This document shows positions 15,932 through 16,384 of a DNA stretch of 46,496 bases, piece after piece. The DNA is from a virus. Its lineage: Duplodnaviria; Heunggongvirae; Uroviricota; Caudoviricetes. Under the pieces are notes generated by a model. That model ran no database searches, was not told the origin of the DNA, and worked only from the letters and a program-made list of their open reading frames with translations. The position numbers and the translations under genes were made by a program. Location: the IMG/VR virus record IMGVR_UViG_2630968543_000003. One strand, written 5' to 3'. Position 1 is the stretch's first letter. Each line of letters opens with the position of its first letter.

Positions 15932-16384
15932 AAATGTCTCACAATTCAGACGGTTGACAGTTGTCTGTTTTGCGGGGAGTTTGTTAAAAGAAACTGGCAT
16001 GGTGAATCCCCCTGTGCGGAGGGGCAATCAGCAACTGGTGTTTTGTCACCGACCCTTATCCTTTCTGTGCGGGTTCAGGTGCTGATACTGAACTCACCGG
16101 GAGGCACCCGGCATCATGTGCATGATGATACAGATACGCGGCTTTAGCCCCTCTCCGGAGGGGCTTTCTTGTGGGCAAAAAAAAGCCCGAGTGGGTTCGG
16201 GCAACAGCATGAGATATACATTTTTATAATCGAATGGATTTTAACCAGAATTCATAAGGCTGCGCAACTGCGCGGTCTTTTTCGAATTGCGGGCTGTCGT
16301 CTCTCTTCTGCCATTGTCCTGTAACTTCCGGACTTCAGCCCGCTCCTTATTTTACTCACAATATTATCCCGGCCGGGAGGATTC

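Follow-up and report, generated by a model that had tools for sequence, protein, structure and literature searches.

The interval between the tRNA cluster and the esterase gene of a stx-negative lambdoid prophage is very probably a convergent small RNA module with a vacant cargo slot at its left border

What lies between the tRNA cluster and the sialate O-acetylesterase gene of a lambdoid prophage that carries no Shiga toxin (Stx) genes? We asked this of positions 15932 to 16384 of a 46,496-nucleotide stretch of viral DNA (IMG/VR record IMGVR_UViG_2630968543_000003; the whole stretch is called the window here). An earlier note on this DNA had taken the interval for an empty site with only hairpins in it, at the place where Stx-converting phages carry stxAB. 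The interval is not empty: it contains full-length Rfam matches to two small RNA (sRNA) families, STnc100 and AsxR, one on each strand, and the hairpins include the terminators of these RNAs. We consider it very probable that the interval represents the "convergent sRNA pair" module, a constant part of the lambdoid late region, and that a moron, or toxin, slot lies vacant at its left border. Tree et al. 2014 (PMC4104026) described such a pair between a moron coding sequence and a conserved phage open reading frame (ORF) downstream of PR'. The evidence consists of family membership by covariance score, the anatomy of the block, its retention after stxB in a Stx2 phage, and the alternative occupancy of its left junction in related loci. 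The coordinates of all features are collected in Table 1.

On the plus strand, the STnc100 model (RF02076) matches over its full length (model positions 1 to 206) and scores 131.7 bits (gathering score, 47; E value, 1e-29). On the minus strand, the AsxR model (RF02703) matches positions 16232 to 16180, again over the full model (1 to 53), with 63.0 bits and an E value of 2e-8; the AgvB model (RF02702) gives 43.4 bits at the same place, under its threshold of 56. The terminators of the two genes converge, with the stems about 20 bp apart across an A/T run (16165/16185). This is the arrangement known for AsxR (EcOnc02) of the Stx2 prophage Sp5, AgvB (EcOnc01), and EcOnc03, which have the same position and the same orientation, antisense to the late strand and convergent with an STnc100-type RNA. 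RNAs of the AsxR/AgvB family are 51 to 60 nt long, with a conserved 3' region of ~42 nt and a variable 5' end of 14 to 18 nt (PMC4104026). The gene in the window falls in this length class, has the conserved 3' region with a Rho-independent terminator and the variable 5' region, and lies convergent with STnc100 between the tRNA/cargo junction and the nanS-p-type esterase gene. STnc100 itself was found by Rfam in all 14 of the related loci sampled, in 1 to 5 copies each.

These matches bear directly on the idea of an empty landing pad, that is, 450 bp of inert spacer with incidental hairpins that marks the place of stxAB. The earlier note was right that there is no sizeable ORF here (the longest one overlapping the interval has at most 53 amino acids), RefSeq has no annotation in 15893 to 16384, and stx2AB stand at the left edge of the interval in relatives, all of which would suit a spacer. 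However, a stretch of 453 bp may lack a long ORF by chance, whereas chance does not account for the Rfam scores or for the conservation seen in relatives. The two full-length matches at or above gathering scores, the retention of the block in Stx-positive phages and in each related locus sampled, the experimental detection of homologues as Hfq-bound RNAs, and the insertion of cargo to the left of the block rather than within it leave an inert spacer very improbable.

To check the structure of STnc100, we aligned 24 distinct homologues with MAFFT and mapped the Rfam structure onto the alignment via the window sequence; one Rfam helix, '(((.)))', is sterically impossible in the window sequence and was dropped before pairs were counted. 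In this alignment 88.6% of the cells are paired, compared with 40 to 51% in slid controls. Helices 2, 3, 5, 6, and 8 are 90 to 100% paired, and helix 5 has three pairs that are changed on both sides. Between the CCCCC/GGGGG hairpin and helix 5 there is a hypervariable segment (~16026 to 16069) with nearly invariant flanks, which is reminiscent of an exchangeable pairing region. The gene shares with STnc100 (RF02076), EcOnc27, and PasD (Zhu, Shabalina and Storz 2026 preprint) the CCCCC...GGGGG hairpin, the ACCGGGAGGCACCCGG hairpin, the closing GCAUGGUG/CAUCAUGU stem, and the terminator, and it shares with them its late-region context, directly downstream of the cargo slot and directly upstream of the sialate esterase gene. 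It differs from the Stx2-phage copies in the variable segment, and it is a single copy, whereas some relatives have 2 to 5 copies in tandem. Five Rfam matches are found in locus L075 (4984 to 7937), where ~1.8 kb of other DNA lies between copies 1 and 2, and two copies ~484 bp apart are found in several other loci (also L013, L033, L053, and L109); such units may bracket cargo on both sides.

The conserved STnc100 unit starts ~240 nt before the terminator U-tract, exactly at the cargo junction. EcOnc27, the Sp5 homologue and convergent partner of AsxR, occupies the same place in Sp5 and is an RNA of ~235/247 nt, of which the 247-nt form is Hfq dependent (supplement of PMC4104026). A unit of ~240 nt fits the size of EcOnc27 and would set the 5' end of the RNA at the cargo junction. 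The leader at 15932 to 15967 may be either the promoter or a 5' extension of the STnc100 RNA. It is also conceivable that STnc100 could be the shared 3' untranslated region, or a processing product, of any cargo that fills the slot. A homologue of STnc100 has also been detected by reverse transcription-PCR in published work.

The predicted minus-strand RNA has the sequence CGAUUAUAAAAAUGUAUAUCUCAUGCUGUUGCCCGAACCCACUCGGGCUUUUUUUU, and its fold has a z score of -1.98. From nucleotide 18 onward, 34 of the 37 nucleotides compared are those of canonical AsxR and 36 of 37 those of EcOnc03, and the terminator stem-loop does not differ; the conserved 3' body with its terminator reads ..AUCUCAUGC..UUGCCCGAACCCACUCGGGCUUUUU. 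Within the first 17 nucleotides, four positions differ from AsxR: the first 7 nucleotides, CGAUUAU, are shared, and the variable region reads CGAUUAUAAAAAUGUAU in the window and CGAUUAUUAAAACGAGU in AsxR. The CAUGCUGUU stretch is that of EcOnc03, not AsxR, and the AgvB motif CACAACA is absent from the window RNA. Read from the sequence, a putative promoter precedes the start at 16232. The promoter scan omits it, and its -35 box matches 3 of 6 bases; the same TTGCGC box stands 18 nt from a TATTAT in relatives that have a different minus-strand sRNA cassette. In four of these loci (L016, L013, L023, and L045), a longer cassette with its own terminator, GCCCGCGTCTCCCAGCGCGGGCTTTTTTTT, replaces the AsxR-type gene in the equivalent of 16166 to 16257 and keeps the TTGCGC -35 box. 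This replacement cassette, which may be an undescribed or a Pas-type sRNA, matches no Rfam family at gathering score in L016 or L013. Rfam matches to Leu_leader, OmrA-B, ncS025, Ysr49, and Trp_leader were dismissed, being below threshold and hitting terminators.

The window sequence represents the commonest allele of this RNA in the viral contigs sampled. Among 21 family members recognized by a strict pattern in the matches listed, 11 have the window allele, 5 are canonical AsxR, 4 are of the EcOnc03 type, and 1 is of the AgvB type; within this set, canonical AsxR is found only in stx2 loci and the EcOnc03 type in stx1-associated loci. When the 14 sampled loci were searched with Rfam, three of them had the window allele (63.0 bits) and another, a stx2 locus, had canonical AsxR (88.1 bits).

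Several points weigh against the reading of the interval as a convergent sRNA pair. Transcription of both RNAs is known from homologues only, not from this strain. The AsxR score of 63.0 lies exactly at the gathering threshold of 63, so that assignment to this family is marginal, and the anti-sRNA differs from AsxR at its 5' end. Its predicted pairing with the FnrS terminator loop is weaker than that of AsxR (-4.6/-5.0 versus -7.3/-8.4 kcal/mol), in a calculation of our own that is limited to the FnrS terminator and is not the published pairing scheme; a full-length duplex prediction between the anti-sRNA and FnrS gave meaningless long-loop structures, with shuffled sequences no worse, and was dropped. 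For STnc100, there is no convincing sigma-70 promoter: the promoter scan lists nothing on the plus strand of the interval, and the TTGACA box in the leader has no acceptable -10 at 17 +/- 1 bp, with a TGTTAAAAG motif lying 25 bp off. The stability of the folded single sequence is unremarkable (z = -1.30), and since it is not distinctive alone, we used the covariance model and the pair counts across homologues. Even there, most pairs are invariant, which makes the covariation support modest, and pairing in helices 1, 4, and 7 is poorly preserved. Finally, published work has established no function for any member of STnc100.

If the interval is a conserved module, where do Stx phages insert their toxin genes? 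The three tRNAs that the earlier note named were also found by ARAGORN and are matched by the Rfam tRNA model; together they form the left anchor of the cargo slot. (The CAU tRNA is labeled tRNA-Ile by RefSeq in an identical sequence and tRNA-Met in a close relative.) The terminator that the note placed after them is present as well: it has a predicted energy of -11.5 kcal/mol (z = -2.95) and is conserved in stx2, TerB, and empty alleles. A total of 379 phage records match 15600 to 16600, and the majority are Stx-converting phages. One of these is the Stx2d phage LC567830. Its tRNA cluster and terminator are 95% identical to the window through 15930 and are followed by 1,335 bp with stx2A and stx2B. 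Homology returns at 15935, 42 bp past the stx2B stop, and continues at 77% identity through the interval into the esterase gene. LC567830 keeps the same block after stx2B, and its toxin cassette is outside the block, on the left side.

We extended this comparison by scanning IMG/VR with a 22-nt invariant STnc100 segment, which found at least 120 loci. Among the matches listed, 45 loci have both the tRNA cluster and STnc100, and we classed them by how far the STnc100 core lies from the last tRNA. Nine of them (200 to 254 bp) have nothing in between, as in the window. An extra STnc100-like copy accounts for 14 loci at 468 to 670 bp, and a 143-amino-acid TerB-domain protein with a DUF3927 peptide for 10 loci at 951 to 956 or 1541 to 1552 bp, the long form having two further small ORFs. 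A 311-amino-acid N6-methyltransferase-like protein is present in 1 locus (1246 bp), and stx2AB are present in 11 (1526 to 1541 bp). The point is thus found in five occupancy states, and relatives do carry cargo here, as the earlier note had supposed. The TerB, methyltransferase, stx2, and duplicated-STnc100 classes all have their right-hand homology begin at 15927 to 15939. Stx1 loci lack a tRNA match in the available stretch and join at 15930 or 15982. On this sequence comparison, the slot is a sharp, reused boundary between the terminator T-run and AAATGTCTCACAATTCAG. The note's view of a site that accepts toxin cargo therefore stands for the junction at ~15927 to 15939, but not for the 450 bp, which are a conserved module kept by Stx-positive phages. 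Lambdoid moron sites, as far as PMC4104026 recounts them from Juhala et al. 2000, are likewise sharply bounded points downstream of PR' that hold different self-contained cassettes in relatives. Measured against that account, the window differs in that its slot is vacant and extra genes lie elsewhere (the porin gene between Q and PR', and Lom/Ail).

The slot in the window is vacant of toxin genes, as had been claimed. When Stx2A and Stx2B were compared with the whole window by tblastn, nothing was found (best E value, 0.5), while the same queries find stx1 at 54 to 56% identity in locus L064. With neither stxA nor stxB, the window is not a Stx-converting phage. One could suppose that the prophage once had stxAB or another cassette and lost it cleanly, so that the junction is a scar. 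There is a T-run on each side of a cassette, that of the terminator on the left and one reading ...GAAAATTTTAAATG on the right in the TerB and methyltransferase alleles, and recombination between these could yield the junction of the window; repeated stx loss has also been raised as one possibility for stx-less Pas loci (Zhu et al. 2026 preprint). However, comparison with Stx phage genomes, which the note had proposed, gave the stx flanks at 15930/15935 and no stx remnant or deletion scar: there are no stx- or cassette-derived bases between the T-run and AAATGTC in the window. In the left junctions compared (L016, L026, L119, L031, and L035), stx2 alleles have the motif TATCTGCGCC directly after the tRNA-terminator T-run, and TerB alleles have the diverged forms TATCCGCGCC and TATCTGCGTT just after it; the motif is absent from the empty allele of the window. 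Further, the identical junction occurs in diverged backgrounds (94 to 100% identity), and no more than 28% of the early/late half is shared even with the closest Stx phages (in the first 25 kb, the best phage records reach a coverage of 28% at most, at ~86% identity). We therefore regard loss of a former cassette as unlikely. Judged by its sequence, the prophage is related to sequenced Stx phages only as a mosaic and is no close stx-negative sibling of any of them.

To the right of the sRNA pair, a third hairpin (16258 to 16277) is more stable than shuffled sequence (-16.3 kcal/mol, z = -4.15, with 0 of 200 shuffles equally stable). With its T5 run it looks like a plus-strand terminator, and it is matched below threshold by the terminator part of the Leu_leader model. 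It is conserved across loci with differing minus-strand sRNA cassettes. The block might, alternatively, act purely in cis, as stacked terminators or insulators and an esterase leader that keep the lysis genes silent in the lysogen, with the RNAs as by-products that have no targets in trans. Plus-strand terminator-like hairpins do stand at 15907 to 15924, 16146 to 16165, and 16258 to 16277, in addition to 15238 to 15259, between the putative PR' and the esterase gene, the third of them is kept whichever minus-strand sRNA is present, and STnc100 is without an established target. In contrast, activity in trans has been demonstrated for relatives of the anti-sRNA. AsxR of Sp5 destabilizes FnrS and derepresses chuS, and AgvB acts by blocking the seed of GcvB and increases fitness in bovine rectal mucus; compensatory mutations, mapped 5' ends, Hfq dependence, and anti-sRNA activity are reported for the two (PMC4104026). 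A conserved 3' body with a hypervariable 5' end, in the anti-sRNA, and a hypervariable internal segment, in STnc100, also suit exchangeable pairing better than terminators alone, and we see a small chance for a role purely in cis.

By analogy with Tree et al. 2014, a convergent sRNA pair in this prophage would work as follows. In the lysogen, the anti-sRNA would be transcribed from its own promoter and bind Hfq, its variable 5' end would pair with a core-genome sRNA and titrate or destabilize it, and the STnc100-type RNA would accumulate as an Hfq-associated species. The hairpins at 15907, 16146, and 16258, together with that at 15238 to 15259, would keep transcription from the esterase and lysis genes until, upon induction, QuuD-modified RNA polymerase would read through the stacked terminators into these genes. 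The tRNA cluster to the left of the slot and the STnc100 unit to its right are conserved flanks, and recombination between them probably swaps the cargo cassettes.

It could also be argued that at least one of the ORFs of 34 to 53 amino acids in the interval is translated. In phage phi296, PHANOTATE calls three ORFs on the minus strand of the equivalent stretch, and the 43-amino-acid ORF at 15896 to 16027 on the minus strand of the window, which runs antisense to the STnc100 leader, has a match (E value, 2e-17) to PHROG 27294, a group of unknown function. However, the other 5 of the 6 ORFs tested in the interval have no PHROG match, and the ORFs cross sRNA terminators and hypervariable segments. 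In L053, the PHROG 27294-type ORF shares only the N-terminal ~33 residues and then diverges and continues into the L053 cargo, to 115 amino acids in total, as expected from calls made on conserved RNA-coding DNA. On these grounds we judged the PHROG 27294 match spurious, and this PHROG is probably built from repeated miscalls on such DNA. Small-protein genes are thus a far-fetched explanation of the interval.

The surroundings of the sRNA pair were compared with the Stx-phage late region. RefSeq entry NZ_CP069990 matches the window to 16743, with 5 single-base differences to 22966, and is out of register after ~22.9 kb; it was used only for annotation of the shared part. The window is a lambdoid prophage adjoining mlrA. 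We take mlrA (yehV) to be the site of the Stx1 prophage in E. coli O157:H7. The Stx-phage layout, which the earlier note described as Q, tRNAs, esterase, and lysis genes, is present in all its elements (Q, methylase, tRNAs, nanS-p, holin, and endolysin). It is altered in that nanS-p is frameshifted and Q is not adjacent to the tRNAs: a porin gene and a 5'-truncated methylase gene lie between them. Compared with the Stx2 phage locus of LC567830 (Q, methylase, ileZ-argN-argO, stx2AB, nanS-p/yjhS, holin, and endolysin), the window shares the tRNA cluster, the terminator, the sRNA block, and the esterase-holin-lysozyme order, and it differs in the lack of stxAB, in the truncated methylase gene, and in the porin gene between Q and the putative PR'-tR'. 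An accessory gene is thus present in this neighborhood, outside the stx slot. The segment 15207 to 15302 is homologous to one located 38 to 144 nt downstream of Q in relatives L001, L003, and L126. The stretch from 15140 to 15270 is probably the PR'-tR' short-transcript module (StxS-like), moved away from Q by the porin cassette, and the terminator at 15238 to 15259 is then probably tR'.

Downstream of the interval, Pfam identifies DUF1737, a SASA/DUF6645 esterase, a P21-type holin, and lysozyme, in this order. The "DUF1737/esterase genes" of the earlier note are a single gene, divided by a 1-bp deletion at 16546/16547 where one A is lost in CACC(A)CACC. The intact gene of 653 amino acids (WP_001530582) is present in a 99.8% identical relative, and RefSeq marks the identical sequence as "frameshifted"; the gene in the window may be a pseudogene, or the deletion may be a sequencing error. 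Between esterase and holin (18346 to 19061) there are DUF1378 and DUF826 ORFs with short intergenic gaps. The PasA/PasC sRNAs lie between the esterase gene and the holin operon (Zhu et al. 2026 preprint); in 18346 to 19061 of the window, the Rfam scan gives no match.

Table 1. Positions of the sRNA pair, the cargo junction, and neighboring features in the window
Feature	Position	Strand	Basis or remark
Integrase gene	75-1361	-	
QuuD-type Q gene	13158-13541		Lysis, head, and tail genes downstream
OmpC/NmpC-type porin gene, AT-rich upstream region	13729-14811	-	Between Q and remaining late region (13542-15303)
Promoter-like TTGAAC-N18-AAATAT	15140-15169		Upstream of terminator at 15238-15259
Strong terminator hairpin	15238-15259	+	Upstream of tRNAs
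DNA methylase gene, 5' truncated	15304-15600		3' fragment only; precedes tRNAs; Stx2 phages have methylase here
tRNA(CAU; Ile2/Met)	15641-15716	+	ARAGORN
tRNA-Arg(UCG)	15726-15802	+	ARAGORN
tRNA-Arg(UCU)	15816-15892	+	ARAGORN
Intrinsic terminator after tRNA cluster	Stem-loop 15907-15924, T8 15924-15931	+	Terminator scan
Cargo (moron) junction, vacant	15927-15939		T-run abuts STnc100-unit leader AAATGTCTCACAATTCAG
Conserved leader of STnc100 unit	15932-15967	+	TTGACA box 15954-15959; kept in all cargo classes
STnc100-family (PasD-related) sRNA gene	15968-16176	+	RF02076; terminator stem-loop 16146-16165
AsxR/AgvB-family anti-sRNA gene, 53-56 nt	16232-16177	-	5' end 16232, terminator stem 16202-16185, U-tract 16184-16177
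Putative anti-sRNA promoter	-10 TAAAAT 16243-16238, -35-like TTGCGC 16267-16262	-	18-nt spacer, start 16232; read from sequence
GC-rich hairpin and T5	16258-16277, T5 16278-16282	+	Overlaps anti-sRNA -35; upstream of esterase gene
Conserved 5' leader of nanS-p-type esterase gene	16283-16384	+	Shine-Dalgarno GGGAGGA 16375-16381; alignment with relatives
nanS-p-type sialate O-acetylesterase gene (DUF1737 + SASA + DUF6645)	16385-18345	+	Right anchor of module; Pfam
DUF1737 ORF	16385-16561	+	
SASA/DUF6645 esterase ORF	16552-18345	+	
Lom/Ail gene	42793-43392		Further extra gene, outside slot

How widespread is this arrangement? The segment 15816 to 16400 is matched in 2,819 of 5,426 complete E. coli genomes, and in 1,012 of them coverage is at least 80%; pieces up to 792 bp apart were merged in this count, so short inserts are possible. 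The 30 best E. coli matches are single-piece and full-length, at least 99.7% identical, and come nearly all from human isolates. The block in which the window allele lies is carried by many human E. coli isolates. Comparison with stx-negative relatives, also proposed in the earlier note, gave the same precise junction in empty alleles, and the arrangement is common in E. coli genomes. The feature is an ordinary one that has already been described: its layout was published in 2014, Rfam has a curated family for each of the two RNAs, and the identical sequence is present in RefSeq genomes. Only the 5' allele of the anti-sRNA is uncharacterized.

The locus nevertheless has some consequences for how such prophages are read. 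PGAP and PHANOTATE either annotate nothing in the block or place spurious small ORFs there, so that readers will keep taking an sRNA module for empty DNA. With the boundaries of the stx2 cassette (15930/15935) and the list of alternative cargo, the slot is cleanly defined for studies that follow how stx is gained and lost. The anti-sRNA allele of this stx-negative prophage, which lacks CACAACA and has the weaker predicted pairing with FnrS, has no assigned target yet. Tentatively, and with somewhat more doubt than belief, we suggest that the AsxR/AgvB/EcOnc03 family has in it an allele of a fourth specificity, which may silence a core-genome sRNA other than FnrS or GcvB and would give stx-negative prophages a host-rewiring function of their own.

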